Shown here one piece after another: positions 9,869 through 34,694 of a stretch of DNA of 64,000 bases. Under the pieces are notes generated by a model, which worked only from the letters and a program-made list of their open reading frames with translations, did no database searches and was not told the origin of the DNA. Every line of letters starts with the position of its first letter. The first letter of the stretch is position 1. Where the stretch lies: the NCBI GenBank assembly GCA_963664325.2, contig CAXXDQ010000005.1:159277-223276 (forward strand), written 5' to 3'. Origin of the DNA: Desulfomonilia bacterium. Lineage in GTDB: Bacteria > Desulfobacterota > Desulfomonilia > UBA1062. The position numbers and the translations under genes were made by a program.

Positions 9869-12190
9869 CTAAATATTGTCACCAACAAAAACAGTTTTTA
9901 TCTTGGTTATCTCGGACGGCAGCAGTTTGTCTTCTCCGAATGTCTCTATAAGCAGTGCAGGCGATATCGTCCTTCCGCCGACAAAGCGTATTGTAAGCGC
10001 GGCCTCATCGTTCTGTCCAAGGTAATCATTCACAACAAGTTCGGCCTCGCCTTTTCTGATCGCTGCACCTTCGCCGAGTTTGAGCCTTAAGGGCCGCATC
10101 AGCCTGAAGGTATAGGCGGCGACCTGTCTGAGCCTGCCCTTCATGCATGATTTGATGGCCATGCCTTCAGGCATATGGCCTGAGAGCGTTTCGGCCGCCT
10201 CCTCTGCCGGAAGGTCTTCTGCGAGGTCAAGCTGCATGTATTCGTCTTCCGATGCGATACCCAGGGATACCGGCGGAATGAGGGTAAGCCTCATGGCCGG
10301 GCTGAAGCCTTCGGAATACGAGGCCCTCAAACCCGAGCGCCTCACAGCCCGCTTGATCATCTCGATAAAGTCCCTGTTGCCGATCAGCGATAAAGCCCCC
10401 GTCTTTGAAAAGCCAATCACATAGGGATACCGGCCCTGCGTCAGTGGCGGGAAGAGGTCGATCTTTTCAGCAGGCCCCCTGATAATATTATTAATATCAC
10501 CCTTGCAGGCGCCGCAATCGAGGCACGCGTCTTCCCTGCAGTCAGGGCTCTGAACAGCGTTGTATGCGAGTTCCCTTTCGCGGATGAGGAAATCCCTGTT
10601 TATTCCCATATCCATGAATTCCCAGGGCTGGGCTTTATTTATATCTCTTTCCATCAGATACTCGCCGGGGTCCAGGCCCGCTCTTTCAAAGGCGCCGGTC
10701 CATGCCTTGAAATTGAATGTGTCCGACCAGCCGTCGAGGTAGGCCCCCAGCCTGAACGCGTTTTCCGTTACGCCGGCAAGCCTATCGTCTCCCCTTGAAA
10801 AAACGCCTTCCAGAACCGAGAACTCGGGATCGGTCCACTTGAGGCTGATTCTCCTGTCGCGGAGCTCCCTCTTGAAGTATCCGAGCATGTCATGAAGCCT
10901 TGCTGTTGCGATCTGGGCTTCCCACTGGAAGGGCGTGAACGTCTTCGGGATGTAGGTGGACACGCTCACATTGACCCCGCCCCTGAATGCGTTGGCGATC
11001 TTTCTCGACAGCCTGACTATAGCCTCGACATCCGCATCCGTTTCGGTGGGCAGTCCTATCATGAAATAAAGCTTGATCAGCTTCCAGCCCTGCTTTCTTA
11101 TGATCGAAATGCTTCGCAGGAGCTCGTCTTCGGTATTGCCCTTGTTTATCACGGCCCGCAGCCGCTCGGTCGCCGCCTCGACCGCCAGCGTGAAACCGGG
11201 CTTTTTGACGGATGAGATGATGCCGGCCATCCTTTCGGTCATGCCCTCGACCCTCATGGACGGCACGCCCAGGGAAATCTCGCGTGACGGGCAGTTGAGC
11301 GATTCCATTATATCGGCCAGGTAGCTCAGGTCGGTTATGGAAAGTGCGGTCATGGCCAGGTTGTCATAGCCGGTTGTTTTAAGCCCCTGCCTGAACGTGC
11401 TGATAACGGAATCGAAAGACCGCTCCCTGTAAGGCCTGTAAATCATTCCGGCCTGGCAGAAGCGGCATCCCCTGGTGCAACCCCTGGCAACCTCCACACC
11501 GAGCCTGTCGTGCACTATGCTTATATTGGGAACGATGATGTCTGCCGGGAACGGGTGCTTATCGAGGTCCGGCAGAATCCTGCGTACCGGCCTGGCGCCT
11601 GAGCCCGGCCTGTAGACGCCTGCAATCCCTGACATGGCGCGGATCCGCTCGTCCCTGTCGTTCACAGCCAGGCATATCTGAGCCATTTCAGCCACCACCT
11701 CTTCGCCGTCACCGATGACGATCAGGTCGAAGAATGGCAGGTATGGCGAGGGGCTGGAAGTACAGGTCCCGCCTGCAATGATTACGGGGTCGGTCTTTTT
11801 CCGTTCTGCCGCATAAATGGGAATGCCGGAAAGGCTGAGCATTCTGAGGACCGTCGTATACGACAGTTCGTGCATGAGCGAGAAACCCACGATGTCAAAT
11901 TTTCCGAGCGGTCTTTTCTCCTCCAGCGAAAAAAGGGGTTCTCTATTCTTTTCCAGGAGCGAGGCCATATCGGGCCAGGGCGCGAACACGCGCTGGGCCC
12001 ACACTCCCCTGATGGAATTAAGGATATGGTACAGTATCTTCTGGCCCGAATGCGACATGCCGATTTCATAGGCGTCAGGAAAGGCCAGGGCGAAACGGAC
12101 TTTGACTTCAGCTTCCGGTCTGCCGGCCTGGTTTACCTCGCCGCCCGTATAGCGGCCGGGTTTCAGAACCTTTTCGAGGCCTTTTATCAT
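9869..12190 (-). CDS. B12-binding radical SAM protein fused to a radical-SAM-linked C-terminal domain (TIGR03960/TIGR03936-like)
   Basis: KPGRYTGGE, FPDAYEIGMSH, RGCTRGCRFCQAG, KLYFMIGLPTE; C-terminal YSEGFSP..LGIASEDE. Confidence 0.88.
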   Translation of the reverse strand: MIKGLEKVLKPGRYTGGEVNQAGRPEAEVKVRFALAFPDAYEIGMSHSGQKILYHILNSIRGVWAQRVFAPWPDMASLLEKNREPLFSLEEKRPLGKFDIVGFSLMHELSYTTVLRMLSLSGIPIYAAERKKTDPVIIAGGTCTSSPSPYLPFFDLIVIGDGEEVVAEMAQICLAVNDRDERIRAMSGIAGVYRPGSGARPVRRILPDLDKHPFPADIIVPNISIVHDRLGVEVARGCTRGCRFCQAGMIYRPYRERSFDSVISTFRQGLKTTGYDNLAMTALSITDLSYLADIMESLNCPSREISLGVPSMRVEGMTERMAGIISSVKKPGFTLAVEAATERLRAVINKGNTEDELLRSISIIRKQGWKLIKLYFMIGLPTETDADVEAIVRLSRKIANAFRGGVNVSVSTYIPKTFTPFQWEAQIATARLHDMLGYFKRELRDRRISLKWTDPEFSVLEGVFSRGDDRLAGVTENAFRLGAYLDGWSDTFNFKAWTGAFERAGLDPGEYLMERDINKAQPWEFMDMGINRDFLIRERELAYNAVQSPDCREDACLDCGACKGDINNIIRGPAEKIDLFPPLTQGRYPYVIGFSKTGALSLIGNRDFIEMIKRAVRRSGLRASYSEGFSPAMRLTLIPPVSLGIASEDEYMQLDLAEDLPAEEAAETLSGHMPEGMAIKSCMKGRLRQVAAYTFRLMRPLRLKLGEGAAIRKGEAELVVNDYLGQNDEAALTIRFVGGRTISPALLIETFGEDKLLPSEITKIKTVFVGDNI

Positions 12191-18237: not shown

Positions 18238-20999
<2,762 letters not shown>

Positions 21000-21000
<1 letters not shown>

Positions 21001-21047
21001 TTCCGTTTTGCATTCAAGACAATTACGCTAGAGCCTGAATGAAAAGC
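21000..21047. mobile_element. Internally deleted copy of the MITE-like element
   Basis: ATTCCGTTTTGCATTCAAG ... CCTGAATGAAAAGC matches the termini of the 13715 and 41116 copies. Confidence 0.6.
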
Positions 21048-21145
21048 AAAATCTCCCCATCTCCCACCCCTCTTCCCCTTAGGTGAAGAGGGCCATCCTT
21101 TCGAATAAATCCGCACATGGCGTGCGGGTTTATTCGAACATGCCA

Positions 21146-21182
21146 TTTCCATGTTCCCAAGCAAAACTTGGGAACATGGAAA
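21146..21182. repeat. Perfect 16-bp inverted repeat (REP-like or terminator)
   Basis: TTTCCATGTTCCCAAG-CAAAA-CTTGGGAACATGGAAA. Confidence 0.8.
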
Positions 21183-21426
21183 GTGAAAGCCGCGCTTGAT
21201 GCTTGCCGGCGTTGTGAAATGTATGTATATTACAGCCTAATTGATGGTTTTGCATTATTGTATTGGAGCGGAATGATATTTATATGGTCAACTTTTTAGG
21301 GCAAAGGGAGAATGTTTGTATTTTGTTATGAGAATATTAAGGCTTTCTTTCAAAAACTACTACTCAGTAAAACAAAACATCGCATTAGGTATAATTATAA
21401 CTTAGCTTGTTCCTTGGGGATAAACA

Positions 21427-21786
21427 ATGTCAGATGTCATTTCAAAAGTCTGTTTGATGCCAAGAGATTTTAAAGTCAGTGGGAATAGGAGCATGATTCA
21501 ACTCCTCAAAGAATCTGGTTATTTGGGGTGCAAGAATGGTGTAGAAAAAGATGTGGTTATTAAGTTTCTAGAAAATCATCCTGATTTAATTAAAGAATGG
21601 CTAATTTATTCACTTGATAAGCGTACTTCGATAGGATGGTATCTCTTGTGTGAAGATTCTGTATGGACTGTTGGGTACTTAAATCATGGTGGGAGAGAAA
21701 AAGAGCATAAGTTTATTTCTGGCTTTGAAGCTTGTGCTATTTTCATAATCAATGAAATTAAGCAGCTTGCTAAAAACGCAATATAA
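21427..21786 (+). CDS. Hypothetical protein (AT-rich, accessory)
   Basis: 119-aa ORF with GGGGA SD; no family recognised. Confidence 0.65.
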   Translation: MSDVISKVCLMPRDFKVSGNRSMIQLLKESGYLGCKNGVEKDVVIKFLENHPDLIKEWLIYSLDKRTSIGWYLLCEDSVWTVGYLNHGGREKEHKFISGFEACAIFIINEIKQLAKNAI

Positions 21787-21809
21787 CCAGTGCAACCAGA
21801 ACATTTTAG

Positions 21810-21870
21810 GGGATGCTGATGAAATAATGAGAAAGCTGTTTCTTCAAAATTTTATTATCATCAACGTCCC
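21810..21870. repeat. ~60-bp palindromic element, copy A
   Basis: GGGATGCTGATGAAATAATGA...TTATTATCATCAACGTCCC. Confidence 0.85.
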
Positions 21871-22000
21871 ACAAGTGGTCTGACTTAGTATACTGTTGTA
21901 TAGCTTCAGGGTACACGCTATAAAAAAGAGTTTCAATATTTTTATCTTTATTACCGAACAGTGCATCATGATGATTTCAATAAAAAGGGAGGGGGAAAAC

Positions 22001-22441
22001 ATGAAGATAAAAATTACTTGTCTCACACTGGCTGCACTATTCTTCATCCTGTCTTCGTCAGCGGTATTGGCAGAGGAGAAGTTTCCCAATCTTGTCGGCA
22101 AATGGACAGGCCAGACTAGGATAGGACATTCACTGGCCAATGGCTTCGGCAGCGAGCATGGAGGTTTGACGATAGACATTGCGAAACAGGAGGGAAGGCT
22201 CTTTACCGGAAACAAGATAATAAAACATTTTGACATAAAGAAAAAGAACGTGACAACAAAGGAGCCTATCTCAGGAGTTATTACAACAGACGGTAAAACG
22301 CTTTACATAGCCGACAGGGATTTCGGTGTGACGATCGGCAACATAATATCAGAGGACAACATCGAATTCTATTACATTCAGAGCGGCAAGAAGGAAGGCC
22401 AGTTCGTCTCGTACTACAATTTCAAAAAAATAAAGCAATGA
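22001..22441 (+). CDS. Hypothetical secreted protein
   Basis: Strong SD GGGAGGGGG before ATG 22001; signal peptide ..AVLA; PNLVGKWTG beta-barrel-like start. Confidence 0.7.
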   Translation: MKIKITCLTLAALFFILSSSAVLAEEKFPNLVGKWTGQTRIGHSLANGFGSEHGGLTIDIAKQEGRLFTGNKIIKHFDIKKKNVTTKEPISGVITTDGKTLYIADRDFGVTIGNIISEDNIEFYYIQSGKKEGQFVSYYNFKKIKQ

Positions 22442-22468
22442 AGTTTAAATGAGCTTAAAGCATTTTTG

Positions 22469-22528
22469 GTGATGTTGATGAAATTATGAGTAAAATGTTT
22501 TTTTAATTCATATAATCATCAACGTCCC
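22469..22528. repeat. ~60-bp palindromic element, copy B, followed by a 13-bp tandem duplication
   Basis: GTGATGTTGATGAAATTATGA...TCATATAATCATCAACGTCCC; ACGTCCCGCTCAG twice at 22522-22547. Confidence 0.85.
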
Positions 22529-22555
22529 GCTCAGACGTCCCGCTCAGAACTCAGT

Positions 22556-22615
22556 GGTGTCAGACCGTTTAAGCTTGACAATATGAGCATAAGTCAAAGA
22601 TAAAGGCCTGACTCC
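22556..22615. repeat. Second-type imperfect palindrome
   Basis: GGTGTCAGACC..TTGAC...GTCAA..GGCCTGACTCC. Confidence 0.65.
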
Positions 22616-22627
22616 CGTTGTTATTGT

Positions 22628-22807
22628 TCAACTAGCGTTAATTACTTCACATGCGTCGCACCAAGACGACCACGCATAACATCCGGTGTCGTGTTCATTA
22701 AAGCCTATCGATGCATCATCAGTCTTGCACGCAAGCAGTATCGCTTCCTGCTTAGACGGGCGACAAAGGATTACTAATTCCGGGCGATTCCATTGTTTTT
22801 TAGCCAT
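22628..22807 (-). CDS. Cys-rich peptide, putative RiPP precursor, family 1 (59 aa)
   Basis: MAKKQWNRPELVILCRPSKQEAILLACK...C..C..C.S; GGAG SD; homologous to 26299..26484. Confidence 0.8.
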   Translation of the reverse strand: MAKKQWNRPELVILCRPSKQEAILLACKTDDASIGFNEHDTGCYAWSSWCDACEVINAS

Positions 22808-23098
22808 AAATTCTCTCCAGTTCAATGGGGAAGGCTGAGATGGTTCATTGACTGAACACCCTCGCAAATACCTCAAAAAACAAAAACCCCACTTTATCAT
22901 AATTTATTGATCATACATCCTTAATGACACTATTAGATAAGCACAAGGGATAATTCAAGTCACTTCTCGGACCCTGGGAGACGATGTTAACTAACATGAA
23001 CTTGATGTCGTATTCAAACCTCAGTCCCTCAGGCATTCCTCCGATATTCAATTATCGAGGAATCCGCATTTTCCCATAAGATTTGTGGGGGCACTTTA

Positions 23099-23155
23099 GG
23101 GACGCTGATGAAATTATGATATATAATTTAAAAATCATATTATCAGCAACGTCCC
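23099..23155. repeat. ~60-bp palindromic element, copy C
   Basis: GGGACGCTGATGAAATTATGA...TCATATTATCAGCAACGTCCC. Confidence 0.85.
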
Positions 23156-23185
23156 CCATAAATCCATTTTGTGGCAGAAAAATAT

Positions 23186-24361
23186 TTACAGTATTTTATT
23201 CAACAGCGGAATGCGCAACAGGATGTAGTAGGCGATCAAAAAGCACAGCGGAATCGAGATCAGGCCAGCCAGCGCCCACTTGAGTACCGGCATCATATAC
23301 AGTGGTGTCATAAGCTTTGTTACGGCAACAATTATCGGCGGGTGGAACATATAAACGGCAAACGCGCCGGCGGACAATTTTTGCGTAAGTTTGTTGCTGA
23401 AATTTAATTTGTCGCGAAACAGCGCCAGAAGCCCCATGGTCATAGCCACACCAACGAATGATTCCCAGAAGGCATAGTAAGCGGCTGGCCAGGAGAGACC
23501 GCCGATTACTCTTTTGCCTGTGTCTACAGACTTCATTGTAAGAGTTGAAAAATCATAAGGACCGGCGAAGTATTTTAATATCAGCCAACCGATAAAGCCT
23601 AAAATCAACCCTGCCGCCAGCCATCTTCTTCCGGTGGCCGACGTCATGCTTTCAAAACAGTTCGTGCGGTATGCAACAATCCCCGCTGTGAACATGATAA
23701 TGTATTGCGAAAAAAATCCCAGCTGCATTCCCCAGAACACTGACCCGATGGGAAAAAACAATCGCAGCGAAAACGCAACCATCGCAATGATGACAATGAG
23801 CAGCAGCAGGCGCCCGGTAGTCACAATACCCTGCCTGGAATCAGACGCTGCCGGAAGCGGAAAGAGCAGACGCCAAAGTGTATATATCAGGCAAAAAATA
23901 AACAATGCCAGCGCGAACCACATCGGGCCGACGCCAAGAAGATGTATTCCGGCAGACTTAAAGTATTGCCAGTAAAATTCCGGGAAACTGGAAGTGCTGC
24001 CTTTCCATAGGGCTGTTGACCCTACCACTGCTATCATCAAAGGAGTTACCACCAGCAGAAAAAACATTGAAGGCAGGACGAGTCTCCGGCATCTGTCGGA
24101 TAAAAACCGGACGGGGCTTTTCCGGTCATAGGCCAGGGGCGTAAAATAGCCTGCCACAAAGAAAAGCATCCCCATGGAAAACCCCTGAGCGAAAGCCTGG
24201 AAGAAACTGAAGAAAATATGGTTGAAGAAGCCAAGCGGCCGTGCTTCGTTATAAAACCAGATGCCGCTGCCGCTGTAAGTCACAGCCAGATGAATCAGAA
24301 TCACCAGCATGATCGTAGCGACACGCAGATTGTCAATGTAATAAAGGCGCTTCTTTTCCAT
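23186..24361 (-). CDS. Acyltransferase family 3 (OpgC/MdoC-like membrane acyltransferase)
   Basis: RLYYIDNLR..LVILIH, MGMLFFVAGYF, RRLVLP, WFALAL, AVYMFH; about 10 TM segments. Confidence 0.85.
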   Translation of the reverse strand: MEKKRLYYIDNLRVATIMLVILIHLAVTYSGSGIWFYNEARPLGFFNHIFFSFFQAFAQGFSMGMLFFVAGYFTPLAYDRKSPVRFLSDRCRRLVLPSMFFLLVVTPLMIAVVGSTALWKGSTSSFPEFYWQYFKSAGIHLLGVGPMWFALALFIFCLIYTLWRLLFPLPAASDSRQGIVTTGRLLLLIVIIAMVAFSLRLFFPIGSVFWGMQLGFFSQYIIMFTAGIVAYRTNCFESMTSATGRRWLAAGLILGFIGWLILKYFAGPYDFSTLTMKSVDTGKRVIGGLSWPAAYYAFWESFVGVAMTMGLLALFRDKLNFSNKLTQKLSAGAFAVYMFHPPIIVAVTKLMTPLYMMPVLKWALAGLISIPLCFLIAYYILLRIPLLNKIL

Positions 24362-24719
24362 TAAAATGTAAGTTTCCTTTCAGGGAAAGTAAGTCCTAAA
24401 CCTCGAAATTTTATAGTCCTGATATATCAGTCAGTTACAACAATAGAAACAGATTGTTTTCAAGTTACTTATATCAATACATATAGCATCTGAAAACCAA
24501 TACATTTTCAAACGGTTAAAAGTTGCAATCCTTCATAGTACTCTTTCATTCTTCAGGCAAGGCACATGGCTTTCATGACTTACAGATATTGGAGAACCAT
24601 AGGGGACGTTGCTGCCCAAATAACTTCCGGACTGTACGAACGTTACAGCTTGATTGCCGATTGCAGAATATTTCACAAATACCAGCCATAATCCGATATG
24701 TATTTTGTCAGGAGATGAG

Positions 24720-26078
24720 ATGGAAAGAAAGAAGATACTGAGGTTTAAGGATCTCGCGCTTTTTACATTCTGCGCGATATTCGGGTTGGAGGCCATTGCA
24801 GCCTCCGCCGCTATCGGTCCATCGGCCATCTTCTGGTGGCTGTTATGCCTCGCCTGTTATTTTATACCGTTCGGAATGATTGCTGCAGAGCTGGGCTCGA
24901 CCTATCCCGAGCAGGGCGGGCTTTACGTCTGGATCAAAAAAGCGATGGGGCGCCGGTGGGCGGCCCGGAGCGTCTGGTATTACTGGATATCCCTGCCGGT
25001 ATGGCTGCCCGCAATCTATATCGCCATCGCGGATATTTTAGGGCACATCTTTTTCCCCGGCATCACCTTCTGGCAGCAGATCGCAATAAGCGTCGTGCTG
25101 ATATGGATCGCCCTCGGAATCAATCTGTGTCCCCTGAACGCTTCAAAATGGATACCCAACATAGGCTCCGTCGCGCAATTTAGCATTGTGGCGGGAATGA
25201 TCGCAACCGCTGCGCTGTTTTTCCTGAAAAACGGGCGCATGGCCAACCGGATCACCCTTGCGGAAGTAATGCCTAACATGAACGCCGCGCTTGTCTTCAT
25301 CCCGATGATCATCTACAACCTCCAGGGCTGCGAACTTGTCTCATCGGCTGCCGGCGAGATGAAAAATCCTGCCCGCGACATCCCCCGGGCGCTTATTTTA
25401 TGCGCCTTCGTAATCGCGGTGCTGTACTTGATGACGACCTTCTCGGTCTGGGTCGTGATTCCGGTCAATGAGATCAACGTGGCGAGCGGCGTGCTTAACG
25501 TATTCACGAACGCACTTGACGATAACATCGCGAAGCCCTTTATCACGGTTGCAGCCGGTCTCCTGATATCGTGCGCTTTCTTTGCGGGAATCATCGCCTG
25601 GAATCTTGGGCTGAACCGTACCATCGCCGAGTCCGCGAACAACGGGGATATGCCGGGGATCCTGGGGAAGATGAACAGGAACATGGCCCCGCTGGGGGCG
25701 TCGGTTGTATCCGGGATCATCTCCACCGCAGTGATTCTTATTTATGGATTCATCGCGAGCGATGCGGCCGAACTGTTCTGGCATACGGTCTCGTTCAGTC
25801 TTATCGTTCAACTGTTTTCAAATCTGATGCTGTTCCCGACTTTTATAATCCTGCGGAATAAAGATAAGGGTGCTCCCAGGCCTTTCAGTGTGCCCGGGCC
25901 CGATTGGTTAGCGATTTTTCTGGCCTTCCTGGCGGGCATATTTGTACTGGCCGCCATTGTCATACTTATTATCCAGCCGGGGCAGGATATAGTCAGGGTA
26001 ACCATGCCGATCATCGCCGGAGTGATAACAGTCGTCATCGCGGGCGAGATTTTGTTATCCCGTTGTAAACCAGAGTGA
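24720..26078 (+). CDS. APC family amino acid/polyamine permease
   Basis: AELGSTYPEQGGLYVW, AGEMKNPARDIP, RPFSVPG; about 12 TM; GGAG SD before ATG 24720. Confidence 0.88.
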   Translation: MERKKILRFKDLALFTFCAIFGLEAIAASAAIGPSAIFWWLLCLACYFIPFGMIAAELGSTYPEQGGLYVWIKKAMGRRWAARSVWYYWISLPVWLPAIYIAIADILGHIFFPGITFWQQIAISVVLIWIALGINLCPLNASKWIPNIGSVAQFSIVAGMIATAALFFLKNGRMANRITLAEVMPNMNAALVFIPMIIYNLQGCELVSSAAGEMKNPARDIPRALILCAFVIAVLYLMTTFSVWVVIPVNEINVASGVLNVFTNALDDNIAKPFITVAAGLLISCAFFAGIIAWNLGLNRTIAESANNGDMPGILGKMNRNMAPLGASVVSGIISTAVILIYGFIASDAAELFWHTVSFSLIVQLFSNLMLFPTFIILRNKDKGAPRPFSVPGPDWLAIFLAFLAGIFVLAAIVILIIQPGQDIVRVTMPIIAGVITVVIAGEILLSRCKPE

Positions 26079-26097
26079 CCCATGAGAGGACGCCAAG

Positions 26098-26268
26098 GGC
26101 ATCAGGCGGAATGACAGGTCCGGGAAACGGGCCGACAGGCCTTCCTTGATGCGCTGCCCTATCGCAGTTATGTCGGACAGGGCCATATCCGAGCCGAAAA
26201 CAAGCTCCAGCTCAACAAAGCGCGTATTGCCTCTGCAGCACGTGTAAACCAGCCCGATATTCTCGAAA
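26098..26268 (-). pseudogene. C-terminal fragment of a CDF transporter paralog
   Basis: FENIGLVYTCCRGNTRFVELELVFGSDMALSDITAIGQRIKEGLSARFPDLSFRLMP aligns with the C-terminus of 31733..32689. Confidence 0.85.
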
Positions 26269-26298
26269 AAGAGAGGGCTCAGAGAGGAAGACAAGATA

Positions 26299-26484
26299 AT
26301 GGATGAAAGCAGGAAGAAATTGTGGATGAAGCCGGAACTGACCATACTGGTGCGCAACAAGCCTGAAGAGGCGGTGCTTGCTGCATGCAAAGGCAGTATT
26401 GGCTCAACGTCATTGGCTGTTCAATACAATAACTGCCGTTTTAACGAATGCTCAAACTATTGCACGGATCAGGTAACATCTTAA
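26299..26484 (+). CDS. Cys-rich peptide, putative RiPP precursor, family 1 (61 aa)
   Basis: KKLWMKPELTILVRNKPEEAVLAACK leader; core C-x15-C-x4-C-x3-C-x5-S; GAGG SD. Confidence 0.82.
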   Translation: MDESRKKLWMKPELTILVRNKPEEAVLAACKGSIGSTSLAVQYNNCRFNECSNYCTDQVTS

Positions 26485-26613
26485 GCCGATCTCTCAAGAA
26501 CCGGAACCAGGGAAAGAGCAATAAGTAAAAGGCATTTGTGATCGACAGGACATGGTGACTGGCCTTAATTGTCTCTTTTCAAGGCATGACACCTTGTTCG
26601 CATGAATTGACGC

Positions 26614-26847
26614 CTAAAATCCGATTCCTGTTATATCGCAATAGATCGCAGCAATGTTTCCATTAATCACGCAAAAATCGGCTGAATTGCCATTACTCGT
26701 ACACATATTTCCTGCGGTATTGCCTGTTGAACAGGAATTCACATCACCGCTGCCGGGACCAAAACAATCGCCTTTGCCGCTTTTGTAATCATAGAGGTCA
26801 TATGCATATGGTTTTTCATATATCGGCTTCTGATTCTTTTCTTCCAT
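26614..26847 (-). CDS. Cys/Gly/Asn-rich peptide, putative RiPP precursor, family 2 (77 aa)
   Basis: MEEKNQKPIYEKP..GKG|DC; five Cys at 10-11 residue spacing; AAGGAG SD before ATG 26847. Confidence 0.85.
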   Translation of the reverse strand: MEEKNQKPIYEKPYAYDLYDYKSGKGDCFGPGSGDVNSCSTGNTAGNMCTSNGNSADFCVINGNIAAIYCDITGIGF

Positions 26848-26875
26848 TACCCTCTCCTTTGGAAGTGTTTCTATT

Positions 26876-26904
26876 ATGGTATCAAGATTGCGCAGTGTAA
26901 TCAA
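26876..26904 (-). promoter_or_regulatory. Sigma70-type promoter of peptide 26614..26847
   Basis: TTGATT-N17-TACCAT with TGn extension; both boxes identical in the duplicate copy. Confidence 0.6.
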
Positions 26905-26912
26905 TACATCCG

Positions 26913-26990
26913 TCATATCATGGCGCAGAGCCTGTCTCTGAACGCACCGCAATTCATATCCTTTTTCTCGATTGCCGTAACAGCCGATTT
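26913..26990 (-). pseudogene. 3' remnant of a second glycosyltransferase copy
   Basis: KSAVTAIEKKDMNCGAFRDRLCAMI* parallels the GT C-terminus AAAFAAVEKQDASYRSFSDWLYAMI*. Confidence 0.7.
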
Positions 26991-27024
26991 CTCCTTGTTA
27001 TTTTGCCGTGTTCGTATGAACTTA

Positions 27025-27261
27025 TTACACAATTCCGCTTCCTGGATTACAACTTGACGGAGCGCCGTTTCCATTATCAATACAAATTCCGCTGTCCGAA
27101 TTGCCATTACTCAAGCAATTACCCAGGGCGTGACCGCCTGTTGAACAGAAACTTCCATTGTTGCTGCCGGATTTACAATCATCACCCTTACCGATTTTAT
27201 AATCGTTGAGATGATATACACACGGTTTTTCATATGCCGGCTTCTGGTTCTTTTCTTCCAT
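27025..27261 (-). CDS. Cys/Gly/Asn-rich peptide, putative RiPP precursor, family 2 (78 aa)
   Basis: MEEKNQKPAYEKP..GKG|DDC; five core Cys in Cx2-3G repeats; AAGGAG SD before ATG 27261. Confidence 0.85.
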   Translation of the reverse strand: MEEKNQKPAYEKPCVYHLNDYKIGKGDDCKSGSNNGSFCSTGGHALGNCLSNGNSDSGICIDNGNGAPSSCNPGSGIV

Positions 27262-27289
27262 TATTTTCTCCTTCGGCGGTGTTTCTATT

Positions 27290-27318
27290 ATGGTATCAAG
27301 ATTACACGATGGAATCAA
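27290..27318 (-). promoter_or_regulatory. Sigma70-type promoter of peptide 27025..27261
   Basis: TTGATT-N17-TACCAT with TGn extension. Confidence 0.6.
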
Positions 27319-27326
27319 TACATCTG

Positions 27327-28523
27327 TCATATCATTGCATAGAGCCAGTCACTGAACGAGCGGTAGCTTGCGTCCTGCTTTTCAACGGCCGCAAATGCCG
27401 CTGCCTTTGATATCCCGACGGCACTTTCATAATTGACGGGATCGTCAAGATTCCTGATATGCCTGATGTATTGCATGATCGTACGGGCATGGTATTTCAT
27501 GTTCACGAAGAAATCAGGGGCTTTCCTTGAATCTTCGTTTACTTGAACCAGAAAACCCTCAGGCGGCATCTCCTCTCTTATGCCGCCCGAGTCGTTTGCA
27601 ATAACCGGCAACCCGCTGCATATGCCCTCGACAATAACCCGCGAATACGGCTCCTCCCAGAGAGAGGGGACCAGAAGTATTCTTGTCATTTCATAAATCC
27701 TGCGCACATCCATGTCCCATGGCATGAAGGTTACGTTTGAAAGATTGAATCCTTCAGGGTTGACCACCGTGCCGGGTTTCATGACCAGAAGAAACTTTTT
27801 GTCCTGAAGATTGCTTGCAATGTTCAGAAATATTCCCAGGCCTTTCGCAGGAGAGCCGTTTATCATAGTGATATATTCCCCCGGCGCAGCGGTGGGGGCA
27901 AAATTTTCAAGGCTGATCTGCGGAATGAGGTTAATGCTGTTCTGAGAGTAATACGATCTGAATTTATCCTTTAGAAAACTTCCGGTGCATATGAATTTGA
28001 ACCCGGGTGCGATTTTTCTGAACATTCCGGTATATTTATTGAAACCTTCCTCAAATATCTGCTGATCGCTGATGCGGTGCAGCCTGAGGGGCGAGAAGTT
28101 CAGGCTTGCCTGCATCGAGAATATGTCGGAATTAAGGGTCAGCGTGGCATCGGTTTTCCTGTCTGACAATATATTGCCCCACAAAACCGAAATCCTGTCG
28201 ATTCTGTCTTTGATATTGTGATGGTATGCCTGGTTTATATCAAGACCGGATAAGAAGCATTCGAATGAAAACGGGTATCCTTCGAGATGAAATTTGATTT
28301 TTCCGTTTCCGGGCAAAACAACCCGGCCGCCGATGCTCAGGATATCCCTTGTCAGCCTTTCATGATTAAAGCCTTTATCGGCAAGCCACAAAAAGGAGAC
28401 ATCAAATCCATCCTGTGAAAGCTTTTTAAGGATGGTCAGAACGCTCAATGTCCCCCCTGATGAATTCCTTATGTCAAGATTGCCGGTCATCAGACATGTA
28501 ATGCGCTTTCCAATCATTATCAC
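27327..28523 (-). CDS. Glycosyltransferase family 4 (GT-B)
   Basis: N-terminal SGG, IN..PAKG, LLVPSLWEEPYSRVIVEG...PVIANDSGGIRE (Ex7E). Confidence 0.85.
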   Translation of the reverse strand: MIMIGKRITCLMTGNLDIRNSSGGTLSVLTILKKLSQDGFDVSFLWLADKGFNHERLTRDILSIGGRVVLPGNGKIKFHLEGYPFSFECFLSGLDINQAYHHNIKDRIDRISVLWGNILSDRKTDATLTLNSDIFSMQASLNFSPLRLHRISDQQIFEEGFNKYTGMFRKIAPGFKFICTGSFLKDKFRSYYSQNSINLIPQISLENFAPTAAPGEYITMINGSPAKGLGIFLNIASNLQDKKFLLVMKPGTVVNPEGFNLSNVTFMPWDMDVRRIYEMTRILLVPSLWEEPYSRVIVEGICSGLPVIANDSGGIREEMPPEGFLVQVNEDSRKAPDFFVNMKYHARTIMQYIRHIRNLDDPVNYESAVGISKAAAFAAVEKQDASYRSFSDWLYAMI

Positions 28524-28737
28524 CCAATCCTGTCAGTCATTTACTTCAAGACGATATTTTTAGCGGATGAAAATACAGTAGCAAATAGTTCATGGCCAGT
28601 CCAACCATAGTTCCCGAAGACGGTTTTTATTTGCGATGGAGTATCCGGCCGCGTCGAATCCCGGGACCGGGAACGCTTGACTTTCCAGCTGTCATCGGTC
28701 ACTATAATCTAATATTTTATTTTTATAAACATGTGAG

Positions 28738-30522
28738 GTGTTCATCATGATGCGAAAGCTGACAATATTTGCACTGATCATTCCGGCCTTAATTTTTGCC
28801 GCCTGCAAAAGCGGGATCAGGGTATGGACTGAGCCGTCCACAGAACGGGTCATGCAGTATTCGGTTTCAAAAAAGATCGTCCCGGCGGAAATCTATGCAG
28901 CGCACAACGATTACGAATCCTTCCAGATAGTGATAAACGGCGGTCTCAACGGCCTTACCGGCGTGAATGTAAGTCCGGGCGATCTGACCGGACCCGGCGG
29001 CGCGGTCATCGCCAAGGAAAACATTGCGCTTTACAGGGAATTTTATGTCCATGTCAGCAAGCCTTCATTTCTATTGGGCGTTGTCGGGGATCTCAGGCTT
29101 CCCGGGAACTACCCGGACCCTCTCATCCCGTTCACAGACCCGTACGATCCCGCCCATCCCGCTGTGGGTGCGCCTTTCAAAGTGGACAAGCTCAAGAATC
29201 AGCCGGTATGGGCCGAGGTCTATATCCCTGAAGGCATACCCGCAGGGGAATATATAGGCACGATGACGGTGAGCGCTGACGGTATGAAGCCGGTTGAAAT
29301 TGAAGTAAAGGCGACAGTCTGGGATTTCAGCATCCCGAAGGAAAGGACCGTCTCGACCGCCTATGGCCTTTATGACAGCACCCCGGATAAATTCCATGCA
29401 GCAGGTTCGCTTGCACAAACCCATTATAATTACGAACTGGAGCTCCACAAGCACAGACTTGATGTAACGAGGATCACGGGCCTTGCATCGAATCCTTTCA
29501 GGTTCGGCAGCGACGGCCATCTGCTCCCGGTGGACTGGACCGAGTACGATTCGATAGTCAGCCCCAGGCTCGACGGCAGCTACTATGGCGACGGCATTGG
29601 CATGCACAAGCTGAACGCAGGCTTCTTCCGCCCCGGAAGCGGCGGGTGGCTTGAAACCGGTATCACCGACGATCAGTACAAGGAAGCAGCACGGGAGTTC
29701 GCCCGCCACCTGAAGGAAAAGGGATGGATGGACAGGGTTTACGTTTACTGCCAGGACGAACCGTTCTGGAACAATGTCCCGTATGAAGATCTGGCGTATG
29801 ACATAAGGCTCATGCTCGAGGCCGACCCGGACTGGAAAGGCGCATTCATGGACACAAACTGGTGGGTCAGGGAGCTCGACGGCCTGATAGACATCTGGTG
29901 CCCCGAAGTCACGAAGTATGAAGGCTGGCTGACCGCCGGCATCCTCGATTTCGCCGGAAGGGATGAATACGACAATATGCGGGCCAGAGGCGAAAACCTC
30001 TGGTTCTATGTATGCAACGCGACCGTGCCGCCGTATGCCGGTTACGATATAGACACCATGATAGCTTACGAGCCCCGCATCATGATGTGGGGCGCCTGGT
30101 ATGAAAAGGCGGTGGGCTTTCTTTACTGGTGCACGACCGCCTGGAAGGAGGTCAACCCGTGGGAAGATCCTCTCGCTTTCCCGATATGCCCGAGAAACGG
30201 CGATGGTTTCCTTTTCTATCCCGGCGATCATAACGGGACGGCCGCGCCCGTGGGCTCCCCGGAAGAGGTCTCAATCAACGGGCCGGTGACTTCGATCAGG
30301 CTTAAGCAGACTAGAGACGGCCTTGAAGACTGGGAGATGTTCAAGATAGCCGCCAGTATCGCAGGCGAGGACGCCGTAAGAGATGCGGTTTCAAAGGCAT
30401 ACACGCAGCTCGGGACTGCGCCGGTTCTGGGGATATGGAATCCTCTCAGCCCGCCGTGGACGCATGATGGAAAGGTCATCGAAGAAGTGAGAAAAGAAGT
30501 CGCTTCTTTGATATGCAGGTAA
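28738..30522 (+). CDS. DUF4091/GH123-like glycoside hydrolase lipoprotein
   Basis: Lipobox FAAC; NDYESFQ, PDPLIP, QDEP, WFYVC, GFLYW, GDGFLFYPG, SIRLKQTRDGLEDWE. Confidence 0.75.
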   Translation: MFIMMRKLTIFALIIPALIFAACKSGIRVWTEPSTERVMQYSVSKKIVPAEIYAAHNDYESFQIVINGGLNGLTGVNVSPGDLTGPGGAVIAKENIALYREFYVHVSKPSFLLGVVGDLRLPGNYPDPLIPFTDPYDPAHPAVGAPFKVDKLKNQPVWAEVYIPEGIPAGEYIGTMTVSADGMKPVEIEVKATVWDFSIPKERTVSTAYGLYDSTPDKFHAAGSLAQTHYNYELELHKHRLDVTRITGLASNPFRFGSDGHLLPVDWTEYDSIVSPRLDGSYYGDGIGMHKLNAGFFRPGSGGWLETGITDDQYKEAAREFARHLKEKGWMDRVYVYCQDEPFWNNVPYEDLAYDIRLMLEADPDWKGAFMDTNWWVRELDGLIDIWCPEVTKYEGWLTAGILDFAGRDEYDNMRARGENLWFYVCNATVPPYAGYDIDTMIAYEPRIMMWGAWYEKAVGFLYWCTTAWKEVNPWEDPLAFPICPRNGDGFLFYPGDHNGTAAPVGSPEEVSINGPVTSIRLKQTRDGLEDWEMFKIAASIAGEDAVRDAVSKAYTQLGTAPVLGIWNPLSPPWTHDGKVIEEVRKEVASLICR

Positions 30523-30967
30523 TAATAACTTTACATCTCTGCATCGCTCCTTGACCTGTTATGTTTGCAGGTATGATACCTATATTTTCATCAATGACAG
30601 TTGAATCTTATAATCCAATCAGGGTCCCGGTCTGTTTCCGGGCTTAAGGTGCAGAAGGATTTATTCCGGCGCCCTGTAGACAATCAACCGGTCTTTTATT
30701 TTCAAGCCGGTACTTATGATAAAAGTTGTTTGAAAACCATGCTTGAGGCTTGCTTATGGTGAAGAATATATGTAATCTATAGCGTAATTGATGATTTTGC
30801 ATAATTGGATTGCAGCGGCATAACAGTAATATGAACAATTTTTTCGGGCATAGGGAGGATGTTTTGAATTGGGTGGTGAAAATCGATCTTTCTTTTATAA
30901 ATTATCGCTCTGTTTCAACAAGACACTGCATGCTGAGTAACCATTAGTCGTGTGCTGATGAATAATT

Positions 30968-31630
30968 ATGCAATATGCATATGACTTAATTCAAACCAAC
31001 CCTGAGTATTTTGCCTTGGGGTTCGTGCTGGTTAATGTTCTTTGGGTTCTTTTTGCCTATCTCAATAAACAAAGACACGACAAAGCATTGGCGAATCTGG
31101 CTCGCAATCTGAAACTGGAAGCAGAGCGGAGAAAGACCATATTTGAGCTAAAAGTTGCCCAATACGAATCCTATGTGAATAACCTGGATGAGTTTGGCAG
31201 AAAACATCAGGTGGACATTCCCTCACGGATGCAACCGATTTTTAAAAAATATCTTCGAGATATAATGGAAGCTTCGGAGCTGCAGAACAAGGAAAAGACG
31301 AAGGATGTAATTGTCTGGTTTTGCGATCAGATTACCACATTGATGCAGGAAGGTTTAAATGATGTGCTTAAACTTCAATCCGAATCCAACCGGTTAAAGC
31401 TTACCGCCACAGATGAAATGATTGAAACATTCAATAGACTTGAATACCTGACTAAGGAATCAATGGAAAAGACCAATGAATTCATGCAGAGATTCATTGA
31501 GATCAACCTTTCACAAAATGATGATGCAATAGATAACTACCTGCTGACCTCGAAAAAGATCGGGCTTGCCATGAAGACAGAGGCAGAAAAACTGATGAAA
31601 CAAATGAGAAACGAACTTGCGCAAATCTAG
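30968..31630 (+). CDS. Hypothetical protein with N-terminal TM and helical body
   Basis: 220-aa AT-rich ORF, one TM; no family recognised. Confidence 0.7.
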   Translation: MQYAYDLIQTNPEYFALGFVLVNVLWVLFAYLNKQRHDKALANLARNLKLEAERRKTIFELKVAQYESYVNNLDEFGRKHQVDIPSRMQPIFKKYLRDIMEASELQNKEKTKDVIVWFCDQITTLMQEGLNDVLKLQSESNRLKLTATDEMIETFNRLEYLTKESMEKTNEFMQRFIEINLSQNDDAIDNYLLTSKKIGLAMKTEAEKLMKQMRNELAQI

Positions 31631-31732
31631 GCTTCCCCGGGCACGCCAATCAGCTAATCGGACGCAGTATGCTGCGGGACGCTGAAAAAATAAATAACCT
31701 GAATGCTGTCTGAAACCTGGACCCCCTGGGTT

Positions 31733-32689
31733 TTATCGCGAAGCGGACAGGTCCGTGACAGCGGTCACGGGCATCAGGCGGAAGGTCAGGTCCGGGAAAT
31801 GGGCAGACAAGCCTTCTTTGATGCGCTGTTCTATTGCGGCTATATCGGACAGGCTCATATCAGAACCGAAAACCAGCTCCAGCTCTATGAAGCGCGTATT
31901 GCCGCTGCGGCGCGTGCAGACCAGCCCGATATTTTCGAAATTGGCGTATTCGCGCATTATGACCTGCAGTATTTTCATCTGGTCTTTCTCCGGCAGGGGG
32001 AGGTCGATGAGAGACTTGAAATTCTTCACGACGAGACGGCTGCCGTTTACCAGCATATAAGAGGCCAGCAGTACCGTCACAACAGGGTCGATCATCATGG
32101 CAGGCCCGCGCATGTTCATCGATATGAGAACCAGCGCCAGCCCCAGTGCCGCCATCACGCCCGTATCCACCACGGCTGATATCCTGTAGTTGATCCTGTA
32201 GGAACCCATTAGCGATGTCTGCCGCCGGTTCCGGCGTATTATCCATGAGGTAAATACAAATAGTCCCAGGGAACGGAGAAGAGATATCCCCATGGGTATC
32301 TGGCTCAGACCGAAGAGTATGTTTGCCGGAGGGTTGAAAAAGCGGATTACGGCTGAATAGATCAGGAAACAGCCCGTCGGCATAAGCAGGGTGCCGTATA
32401 AAAGACTGGTGAAGTTCTCAAGTTTGCCCACGCCGTAAGGGAATGTGAAGATGTTTTTTCTGAGCATGATGCGGATGGCCGCGAAGGCGAAAATATTGAC
32501 GATGATTGACAGGCCGTAGTCAACCGCCACTGCGAAGATGGTCAGGGAATCCGAAACGAGACCGATGGCGATAAACAGGACAGTGAGCGGAATAAGCGTT
32601 CCGACTCCCCAGTACACCACGAGGCGGAGGTCGTTCAGCTGCCGGGAAGATTCGTCTTGAAACTTCGTATTGGTATGGTTTTCAGGCAT
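31733..32689 (-). CDS. Cation diffusion facilitator family transporter (divergent)
   Basis: FPYGVGKLE, 6 TM segments, C-terminal dimerisation domain (RRSGNTRFIELEL); GGAG SD before ATG 32689. Confidence 0.8.
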   Translation of the reverse strand: MPENHTNTKFQDESSRQLNDLRLVVYWGVGTLIPLTVLFIAIGLVSDSLTIFAVAVDYGLSIIVNIFAFAAIRIMLRKNIFTFPYGVGKLENFTSLLYGTLLMPTGCFLIYSAVIRFFNPPANILFGLSQIPMGISLLRSLGLFVFTSWIIRRNRRQTSLMGSYRINYRISAVVDTGVMAALGLALVLISMNMRGPAMMIDPVVTVLLASYMLVNGSRLVVKNFKSLIDLPLPEKDQMKILQVIMREYANFENIGLVCTRRSGNTRFIELELVFGSDMSLSDIAAIEQRIKEGLSAHFPDLTFRLMPVTAVTDLSASR

Positions 32690-32945
32690 AGTCTCCAGTT
32701 TGAAGATATAAGGCGGGCAGACTTTTTTTGTCAATTAAATGTTGATGCCGTCATGCGTATCCTGCACGGCAGTGATATAACCGGGAAAGACGGGCGCTAA
32801 ATATCTTGAATTAATTATTTCGCTGGGCAGGAGGGGCCGCAACAGTTGACAGTTAAATGTAGAATGTTGAGACCCGTAGACCTTCCCTTTAATAAATTTA
32901 TGAAATTACCGATAAAATTATAAGGACATGAAAGATGTGAGGTGA

Positions 32946-34694
32946 ATGATGAATAGTACAGGGAATATGCTCCCATCAATAAAAATGAAAATGTTCTTTT
33001 TATGTATTGCAGTTCTTCTCTCTGCAGGCTGTTCCAGCAAAAGTGACAACCCGGGGGAATCAATTCAGCCTTCGCTTGTAAGGGATACGGTTTACGGCCA
33101 GGTCAGGGGCGCAGCAGACAGATACAGCACTCTTTCATGGCTTGGGATTAAATATGCAAAAGCGCCTGAAGGCGAACTCCGCTGGAAGGCACCGAGAGAC
33201 CCGGATGCATGGGAAGGGACAAGGGATGCCACATCATTCTGCGATGCATGCGTACAGTACGGCACGGCACTCAACTGGATTGACTATGACCTTTTCGGCA
33301 AACCGCAGGGTTGCGAGGACTGCCTTTGCCTCAACATCTGGAGGCCTGATACATTGCAGGAGAATCTCCCTGTTTTCGTCTATATCCATGGAGGGGCGAA
33401 CCTTATCGGCTCATCCAGCCTCGATGTCTACAACGGAGCGCATCTCAGCTCAAAGGCCAATATGATCGTGGTTACGATTAACTACAGGCTCGGGCTTGTG
33501 GGCTGGTTTTATCACCCTGTGCTCAATACCGGAGACAGCCTCGACGATTCGGGAAATTACGGAACACTGGACATCATCAAGTCTCTCGAATGGGTGAGGG
33601 ACAATATTGGCTCCTTCGGCGGCGATCCGGCCAATGTAACTATTGCGGGACAGTCGGCCGGGGCCATGAATGTCCTGTCACTTATGGCATCTCCAAAGGC
33701 CGAAGGTCTCTTCCACAAGGCGGCCATTCACAGCGGCTTCATGATTTCGTCTTCAAAGGCATCTGCACAGAAATGGACCCTTAATGTCATAAGGCGGCTG
33801 CTCATCCAGGAAGGGCGGGCTGCTGACAATGATGAAGCTGACGCAATCATTGCAGAGGAAGGCACTGCCCTGGGCGAATATCTCAGGAATCTGCCTGCGG
33901 AAAAAATATATGAATCGGCCGTTGCCACCAAAACCGGAGGCACCTCGGACAACCAGGGCAACATAAGCGATGCCATGTTCGGAATTTTCGAAGATGGGAC
34001 TGTGATCGACGAGAGAATAAGGCTCAAGATCAGAGACGGCAATTACAGCCATGTGCCGGTGATAATCGGCTGCAATTCGAGCGAACTGAAGATGTTTCTG
34101 ATGATGTTTCTGGTAGACTCTGAAGATCTGTACAAACTGATAAGGGAATATGACCCTGATGTCTCCACCACGGATGTGGAAGATATCATAGGCGCTGGTG
34201 CTGCAGAAATGTACGAACAGGGCGTATCGGCAGGACAGGTCGTTTTCAGCAATTATGGAGTCGACTATACCGCAGGCCTGCTGTCCTCACACGGGGATTC
34301 AGTCTATGCGTATAACTTCGTCTGGGATAATGGAACCGGGCCTTTCAAATTCCTGCTGGGCGGTTCCCATGCAGAGGATGTACCTTTCATGTTCGGAAAT
34401 TTCCTTCCTCAGGGCCAAAGCCTGATCGGGCTGATGTGGGACGATGAGAATGAGCCTGAGAGAAACCTCATATCAAATGAAATGATGGCCTACTGGGGCA
34501 GCTTTGCCTGGTATGGCGATCCGAACATCAGTTCAGGTCAGCCGCAATGGGATGAATACGGCGAAGGAAAACATATGGTGATAGGGCAGGGCTTACCTCA
34601 CATGGCTGATAACGCTGAAACTGCTGCCGAAGTCGAATGCCCGGCCTGCGTTATCGACGATGTCCTCGAGAGCATGCCTGCAGGAGGGTATTAG
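32946..34694 (+). CDS. Type B carboxylesterase (pNB esterase-like) lipoprotein
   Basis: LRWKAP, EDCLCLNIW, HGG, NYRLG, FGGDPANVTIAGQSAG, SHAEDVPF; lipobox SAGC. Confidence 0.92.
   Translation: MMNSTGNMLPSIKMKMFFLCIAVLLSAGCSSKSDNPGESIQPSLVRDTVYGQVRGAADRYSTLSWLGIKYAKAPEGELRWKAPRDPDAWEGTRDATSFCDACVQYGTALNWIDYDLFGKPQGCEDCLCLNIWRPDTLQENLPVFVYIHGGANLIGSSSLDVYNGAHLSSKANMIVVTINYRLGLVGWFYHPVLNTGDSLDDSGNYGTLDIIKSLEWVRDNIGSFGGDPANVTIAGQSAGAMNVLSLMASPKAEGLFHKAAIHSGFMISSSKASAQKWTLNVIRRLLIQEGRAADNDEADAIIAEEGTALGEYLRNLPAEKIYESAVATKTGGTSDNQGNISDAMFGIFEDGTVIDERIRLKIRDGNYSHVPVIIGCNSSELKMFLMMFLVDSEDLYKLIREYDPDVSTTDVEDIIGAGAAEMYEQGVSAGQVVFSNYGVDYTAGLLSSHGDSVYAYNFVWDNGTGPFKFLLGGSHAEDVPFMFGNFLPQGQSLIGLMWDDENEPERNLISNEMMAYWGSFAWYGDPNISSGQPQWDEYGEGKHMVIGQGLPHMADNAETAAEVECPACVIDDVLESMPAGGY

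Follow-up and report, generated by a model that had tools for sequence, protein, structure and literature searches.

Several described peptide systems resemble parts of the locus discussed here, which occupies positions 22,628 to 32,689 of a 64,000-nucleotide stretch (the window) from a Desulfomonilia bacterium (GenBank GCA_963664325.2, contig CAXXDQ010000005.1). The locus carries four small Cys-rich open reading frames (ORFs), A1, A2, B1 and B2, interleaved with a GT4-family glycosyltransferase (GT), an acyltransferase and transporter genes. Judged from sequence and gene context, the four genes are quite probably satellite precursors of two radical-SAM systems that depend on a RiPP recognition element (RRE; RiPP, a peptide made on the ribosome and modified after its translation) and are encoded elsewhere in the genome, on separate contigs, and the peptides would be matured in trans. 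This genome, G000, measures 4.3 Mb and is 95.6% complete; the window lies on its contig C5.

The SynChlorMet cassettes are catalogued through the models TIGR04248 (ScmD), TIGR04249 (ScmC), TIGR04250 (ScmE), TIGR04251 (ScmF) and TIGR04252 (ScmA), yet the model precursor ScmA misses the peptides described here. No paper on the chemistry of SynChlorMet, ScmE, ScmF or TIGR04248-52 was found in a search of the main texts of openly accessible papers, and looking for the terms Scm, kinase and glycosyl in the main text of PMC10288494 gave nothing. The family of B1 and B2 is found inside such cassettes. However, B1 and B2 themselves lie on C5 and the enzymes on contig C7, so that precursor and enzymes are not adjacent, and the model set does not include the GT4 that accompanies family B.

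The linear polyphosphorylated peptides (LPP; lppAKBSDN; Popov et al., 2026) are a second point of comparison. According to the excerpted text of PMC13381572, an HprK-like kinase phosphorylates Ser residues of these peptides, a peptidase removes the leader, and the choice between the LPP and paeninodin RREs depends on whether the leader carries W or Y. The likeness is twofold: a stand-alone RRE, a kinase resembling HprK, an archaeal-type signal peptidase (SpI), a nucleotidyltransferase and an MsbA-like exporter are all present in the family-A cassette on contig C3, and two systems in one genome are told apart by WxxP versus YxxP. On the other hand, LPP clusters, as far as the same excerpts describe them, are without radical SAM proteins and restricted to Bacillota, while the cassettes discussed here hold two or three of these proteins. 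In addition, the LPP leader consensus YxxPxVLxHQxIxFETxxS is absent from the A and B alignments, and the cores are Cys-patterned and the precursors dispersed.

Dispersed precursors are known from the prochlorosins and synechococsins (ProcM/SyncM), which in the part of PMC10783134 consulted likewise combine many precursors, a conserved leader, a variable Cys core and a scattered position away from the maturase. These differ by their Nif11 leader and LanM chemistry, and that part describes no travelling tailoring enzyme. Glycosylated RiPPs are rare and their glycosyltransferases mostly belong to GT2 (PMC11912497, relevant sections). In the glycocins (a GT2-family S/O-glycosyltransferase), cacaoidin (Cao24, a GT4 precedent with a proposed role) and davasin (IgtG, GT2), the glycosyltransferase is encoded beside the precursor, as it is here (PMC11912497 and PMC8068269, relevant sections). 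The enzyme in the window is a GT4 with a GT-B fold instead of a GT2, and it is detached, together with its precursor, from the core enzymes; no class that these sections list is radical-SAM cross-linked.

PapB (PMC9413430) and CrpC (PMC13692751), as presented in the passages cited, are SPASM radical SAM proteins with an RRE that act on Cys-repeat substrates, which is the likeness with the present cassettes. In contrast, PapB-type ranthipeptides contain CxxxD/E motifs, whereas family-B cores contain C-x2-3-G-N, and the PapB model NF047865 (cut-off 340 bits) gives 70.2 bits for ScmE of G000 and 42.7 bits for the C3 radical SAM protein. Lasso peptides share the RRE-binding motif, but a macrolactam cyclase is absent from the C3 and C7 cassettes (L001, L017). 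A cyclase-like gene of G000 sits in a locus apart from both, on C8, accompanied by a small ORF of that locus. This locus (L019:7778-11350, C8 at about 80-83 kb) looks like a third RRE system, with a lasso-cyclase-like protein (188.7 bits against 525), a small WxxP ORF, PqqD and an HprK-related kinase.

Two precursor families and their cassettes on other contigs

A1 (22628-22807, minus strand, 59 aa) and A2 (26299-26484, plus strand, 61 aa) have a WxxPxL leader, a four-Cys core (CK-x15-C-x6-C-x2-C in A1 and CK-x15-C-x4-C-x3-C in A2) and a terminal Ser. B1 (26614-26847, minus strand, 77 aa) and B2 (27025-27261, minus strand, 78 aa) are SynChlorMet-type precursors with a YEKP leader and a core of Cys-Gly-Asn repeats (C-x2-3-G-N). 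Together the four genes span 4,634 nt; each peptide contains 4-6 Cys and each gene is preceded by a purine-rich run resembling a Shine–Dalgarno (SD) sequence. All four carry the [Y/W]xxPx[L/V/I/F/A] RRE-binding motif of the lasso-peptide type, i.e., WNRPEL in A1, WMKPEL in A2, YEKPYA in B1 and YEKPCV in B2. Against Pfam and NCBIfam, none of them gave a match at E<=0.1, and the ESM Atlas returned only unnamed clusters, for A2 (0.93) and B1 (0.88), the B1 match being at most a lead. The region from 20733 to 33500 is covered without differences by contigs from two runs of one sample, which is possibly the source sample.

Hidden Markov models (HMMs) built solely from cassette-linked peptides outside the window were searched against 77,640 six-frame segments. 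They score A1 at 55.5, A2 at 62.4, B1 at 68.4 and B2 at 43.4 bits (E 1e-10 to 2e-18). Among 500 shuffles of each peptide, scores did not exceed 10.0 bits for family A and 11.7 bits overall, and cross-family scores were at most 4.1 bits. As the leave-out scores lie far above those of the shuffles, the families are not a product of chance: A1/A2 and B1/B2 are two distinct precursor families, each assigned to one cassette family. In the leader of five intact GT4-type B copies (codons 1-27), nonsynonymous differences per site (pN, 0.06-0.17) are below synonymous ones (pS, 0.22-0.64) in 10/10 pairs, although the pairs involve kin and the counts are no statistical test; in the cores of the same copies, pN is 0.20-0.41 and pS 0.28-0.58. 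The low pN in the leader combined with the variable cores indicates selection on the B leader at the protein level. The first-pass annotation had recognized four Cys-rich ORFs of 59-78 aa with SD sequences, conserved leaders and variable C-termini, a description borne out by the coordinates, the HMMs and, for family B, pN/pS.

It could be argued that the copies in the window are recent, silent or decaying duplicates and that only the cassette-linked precursors are produced. The site is a hypervariable mosaic with CDF (cation diffusion facilitator) and GT4 fragments, both families include broken copies, and promoter and terminator scans of the region stay at chance level (7 vs 11.1 and 5 vs 6.5, respectively), all of which would fit such a view. 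It is nevertheless unlikely, given four intact frames with SD-like sites and every family motif, and a B leader pN far below pS in all pairs, B1 versus B2 included. Moreover, satellites, i.e., copies away from a cassette, are common in the genus. In G000 they make up 4 of the 9 family-A and 5 of the 8 family-B copies, and for family A they account for 7/11 copies in G001 (two at a contig end), 2/5 in G003 and 0/4 in G002.

Family A has nine copies in G000, one of them broken, according to a six-frame search of the whole genome. Five of these sit in the C3 cassette, which encodes an NTP_transf_5 protein, an MsbA-like ABC transporter, a fusion of S26 peptidase and GNAT, three radical SAM proteins (370, 387 and 673 aa) and PqqD. 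The 673-aa protein has a C-terminal ScmC/HprK-like kinase domain, identified by similarity to ScmC alone (24% over 223 aa, E 2e-8). WxxP is present in 37/37 and the terminal Ser in 36/37 collected copies of the family, and A1 and A2 retain both as well as the four-Cys scaffold. The family-A tree is mostly unresolved and gave no donor for A1 or A2. Family A occurs in 8 of 41 genomes, and the identical eight encode the 387-aa cassette radical SAM protein at an identity of at least 56%; a ninth genome, without family A, has only a 34% match to this protein. At one locus of another genome (L081, G030 C8:43-62 kb), a family-A peptide is flanked on either side by a set of genes for large ABC exporters and adaptors, and the cassette enzymes of that genome are about 12 kb away.

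Family B has eight copies in G000, again with one broken in the same type of search. Three of them are located on C7, where a PqqD gene stands on either side of the group and ScmE, ScmF and a ScmC-S26 fusion come next. ScmC reaches 153.7 bits, above its cut-off of 125, and the ScmE orthologs of G001 and G002 reach 402.2 and 411.5 bits, above the cut-off of 400. The second PqqD of C7 was scanned on Pfam only. Family B is found inside Scm-gene cassettes in G000-G003, G029, G035 and the metagenome contig L026. It is present in 6 of the 41 genomes, all among the nine with ScmE; in the other three ScmE-positive genomes, a narrow profile gave no family-B match. The ScmA model (35 bits) matches neither B1 and B2 nor anything else in G000, and it touches one family-B member in G029 weakly, at 18.7 bits. 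For family B, the first-pass annotation was thus right in pointing to ScmE/ScmF-type SynChlorMet genes. Searches of G000 and its relatives, of the kind it had proposed, place the two families beside PqqD and radical SAM genes.

Since neither family occurs without its enzymes (8/8 genomes for A and 6/6 for B, among the 41), maturation of the window peptides in trans is likely, as the first-pass annotation had predicted for RRE-type precursors; the PqqD and radical SAM/SPASM cassettes of both families are indeed present elsewhere in G000. The same data bear on the idea that the peptides are unmodified, disulfide-bonded or metal-binding mini-proteins that function independently of the radical-SAM cassettes. 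Their Cys content, the CDF gene nearby and the lack of a family match are compatible with it, but it is very unlikely, as 0/41 genomes have either family without cassette enzymes, copies sit inside the cassettes and the leaders carry the RRE-binding motif.

A number of observations weigh against maturation by the two cassettes. The genomes behind the co-occurrence counts are kin rather than independent, and the counts are no statistical test. The C7 proteins ScmE (391.7 bits; cut-off 400), ScmF (313.6; cut-off 400) and ScmD1 (54.4; cut-off 100) all stay below their cut-offs, ScmE just under it, yet the respective model is the best family in each case, for ScmE by far. The C7 cassette is without an exporter or nucleotidyltransferase of its own. 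One cassette copy of each family is broken in G000, which illustrates that decay occurs.

In the proposed mechanism, the WxxP leaders of A1 and A2 would be recruited by the PqqD protein of the C3 cassette and the YxxP leaders of B1 and B2 by those of the C7 cassette. The difference between W and Y in the leader probably keeps the two streams apart, and the coexistence of both families fits the finding that this residue decides on RRE choice (PMC13381572, in the excerpted text). The SPASM enzymes would then cross-link Cys residues, most likely as thioethers; PapB and CrpC are the model for this step, even though the Cys contexts of the peptide cores contain no CxxxD motif. By analogy with LPP, the kinase would phosphorylate Ser and the S26 peptidase would remove the leader, after which the ABC transporter would export the product. 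The C3 exporter may be common to both systems, because C7 lacks one and the C3 exporter is the best G000 match (37%) to the exporter of L026. On a more tentative view, which goes with the module proposal below, members of the genus would maintain two peptide libraries, WxxP and YxxP, each spread over the genome and insulated from the other, that share one exporter. The W/Y discrimination rule, as far as it is set out in the excerpts of PMC13381572, would extend to radical-SAM systems outside Bacillota, and the locus would name natural substrates for two uncharacterised radical-SAM systems, together with a candidate dedicated glycosyltransferase.

A glycosyltransferase linked to family B

The GT4 gene (27327-28523, minus strand, 396-398 aa, PF00534/PF13692) shares its strand with B2 and stops 65 nt upstream of it. 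Its product has an intact E-x7-E motif and a confidently predicted GT-B fold (pLDDT 89.6), for which the only structural matches are generic GT4 enzymes at 17% identity or less. Upstream of B1 lies a degenerate copy of the GT4 3' end (26913-26986, minus strand), left by a tandem duplication (265 nt, 75%); B1 thus originated from a duplication of the GT4 tail together with the peptide gene, the unit now represented by the GT4 tail and B2.

The enzyme belongs to a small and rare subfamily that is tied to family B and SynChlorMet cassettes and has full-length matches in Saganbacteria and Omnitrophota records. The order GT4 then B gene is found in 5/5 loci, i.e., the window, L023, L024, L025 and L026, a count based on full-length or close GT4 homologues with flanks; about ten other subfamily members, for which flanks are lacking, and a partial match in G313 are not included. 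In G001 and G002, a GT4 of 77-78% identity precedes a B gene at another site, which is orthologous to G000 C4:230k, where a B copy is kept with only a GT4 tail upstream. The occurrence of the pair at differing sites within the genus implies that it moved as a unit. The same pair is present on the metagenome contig L025. On L026, a 40% relative of the GT4 lies inside a complete cassette with the order ScmD-ScmE-ScmF-GT4-B-ScmC-S26-ABC-NTP5, in which the B gene starts 12 nt after the GT4 stop and ScmC (291.9 bits), ScmE (558.9), ScmF (539.4) and ScmD (128.8) are all above cut-off. In a quick tree, the enzyme of the window groups with that of L026 in a clade of 9 rows (SH-aLRT 97), apart from seven other GT4 proteins of G000.

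A search of 401 genomes of the phylum returned two, G000 itself and G313. The latter was rejected as a homologue, as the match covers only 154 aa at 38%, lies at a flagellin locus without a B peptide and falls outside the clade. A plasmid search for the GT4 found none. The window GT4 gives 18.2 bits with TIGR04157 (glyco_rSAM_CFB), below the cut-off of 400, and is not among the ten G000 matches to this model, which is presumably a marker of a peptide-system GT4.

The surroundings of the Scm cassette of L026 (426-5650 and 14248-15582) contain three additional B-like peptides, GT2 genes and a gene resembling that of UDP-xylose synthase (283.8 bits against 294), which suggests a variant with heavy glycosylation. 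At C7:289.7k, G000 encodes a 38% relative of the UDP-xylose-synthase-like gene.

The GT4 would belong to SynChlorMet systems as an accessory, travelling in a module of two genes with a B precursor of its own, and its most likely role is glycosylation of the B product. Whether the enzyme really adds a sugar to that product is evenly balanced on the present context, which does lend support to the local glycosylation suggested by the first-pass annotation. In its full form the proposal is more tentative and falls somewhat short of an even chance: GT4 and precursor would be a portable module that escaped from a SynChlorMet cassette, moves and duplicates alone and uses the resident ScmD, ScmE, ScmF and ScmC in trans, so that the peptide would end up with a sugar, radical-SAM cross-links and possibly phosphate. 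If true, the combination of glycosylation and radical-SAM cross-linking would be new to the glycosylated-RiPP lists in the relevant sections of PMC11912497 and PMC8068269.

Several points speak against a dedicated role of the GT4. Its linkage to B amounts to about two independent observations, as a single close lineage (77-87% identity) accounts for four of the five loci. The gene is optional: it is present in 3/122 genomes of the class, G003 lacks it despite having the cassette, and so do the five genomes of the sister family in which ScmE occurs. L026 is itself rich in sugar genes, both GT2 and nucleotide-sugar genes, and GT-rich surroundings can mislead on cluster boundaries (PMC13381572, section 6). 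In G002, the GT4-linked B gene has a stop in its core beside an intact GT4. The absence from most Scm-bearing genomes searched, this intact enzyme next to a broken precursor and the purely generic structural matches would also suit a GT4 that is a passenger, excised with the next gene, and that glycosylates a cell-surface polymer, a small molecule or the immunity or export machinery, the four peptides still being satellite precursors. That explanation is plausible though rather doubtful, because the order GT4 then B is kept at 40% GT4 identity within a complete cassette, the two genes have travelled jointly between two sites within the genus, and G002 has a second, intact B gene at its master cassette.

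Two further B satellites have neighbours of interest. In G001, a satellite B peptide is followed by an S26-like gene (L094:2494-3442), and in G000 a satellite copy precedes a 219-aa ORF that may be related (C3:991.4-992.3k); the B gene with the S26-like gene is perhaps a second portable module. Another satellite B copy lies directly after a fragment of an HlyD-type adaptor gene (L004:9346-10014, G000 C7:899k).

A hypervariable site with incidental cargo

Domain scans agree with the neighbours named in the first-pass annotation: an acyltransferase-3 (Acyl_transf_3, 23186-24361, minus strand), an APC permease (AA_permease_2, 24654-26078, plus strand), the GT4, a CDF 3' fragment (26094-26268, minus strand) and an intact CDF transporter (31733-32734, minus strand; TIGR01297, 88.8 bits against 82.35). 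They also support its statement that no maturase is nearby. Among 47 window proteins scanned, uvrA being left out, there is no SPASM, PqqD, YcaO, LanM or C39 match, and the only radical SAM protein (9869-12190) is of the PF19864/DUF2344 type and lies 10 kb away. Cluster-based mining would miss such satellites and accessory enzymes.

The region between uvrA and the CDF-methyltransferase-patatin genes carries differing cargo in all four genomes of the genus. At the orthologous site of the three congeners, the APC permease is found in two (91-92%), the acyltransferase in one (97%, partial) and the CDF gene, a resident of the site, in all three (71-75%), with an A or B gene in 0/3. As they stand at the orthologous site without a peptide, these genes have no fixed link to the peptides, and 25 peptide-centred loci gave no match to any of the three. 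Acyltransferase, permease and CDF are therefore judged to be unrelated cargo of the site after uvrA, and neither local acylation nor local transport is supported. That all of them, with the GT4, act on the peptides as one coherent locus is highly improbable and largely refuted by these comparisons, despite the physical interleaving of the genes in the window. Rather than the single precursor bank envisaged at first, the locus holds two precursor systems that are unrelated to each other and have landed in a hypervariable site; it is not a coherent cluster.

The mosaic nature of the window is evident from the CDF 3' fragment, an 85% copy of 31766-31940, and from the tandem duplication, repetitive extragenic palindromic (REP)-like elements and swings in GC content from 34% to 58%. 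Together with the intact CDF gene, the fragment brackets A2, B1, B2, the GT4, a GH123-like gene (28738-30522, plus strand) and a 220-aa orphan; the last two, which the first-pass annotation does not list, lie between GT4 and CDF. Orthologs of the GH123-like protein (81-82%) are found at another site, divergently oriented from a family-A peptide in two of the three congeners, G001 and G003 (L079:5047-7291; L082:7479-9749), and without a peptide in G002 (L130).

Two REP-like palindromic elements lie directly 3' of A1 (22465-22625). The first is one of three imperfect palindromes of about 60 nt, REP-like or resembling miniature inverted-repeat transposable elements, at 21806-21873, 22465-22531 and 23095-23158. 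They are 630-660 nt apart and set individual small genes off from one another (A1 and orphans of 119 aa and 181 aa); one more similar site is present on each of C7 and C8. A reading of the palindromes in the window as integron attC sites was also considered, but their arm order, GTT...AAC, is the reverse of that of attC. The second element, of about 75 nt, occurs at 22549-22625 and in G000 at C2:159747 and C3:1032941-1033060; a derived pattern finds 23 sites. The REP-like element was considered as a dispersal agent, being within 300 nt of 3/4 family-A satellites in G000, in one case also beside an IS110-like gene, compared with 28/3,148 ORFs within 400 nt. This was not supported, as the pattern was derived from the same flanks and 0/13 satellite or module loci in the relatives have it. 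Finally, a 134-nt non-coding repeat (75%) at 21184-21317 and 30731-30864 marks two boundaries of the variable region, and two perfect short hairpins lie at 21100-21182.

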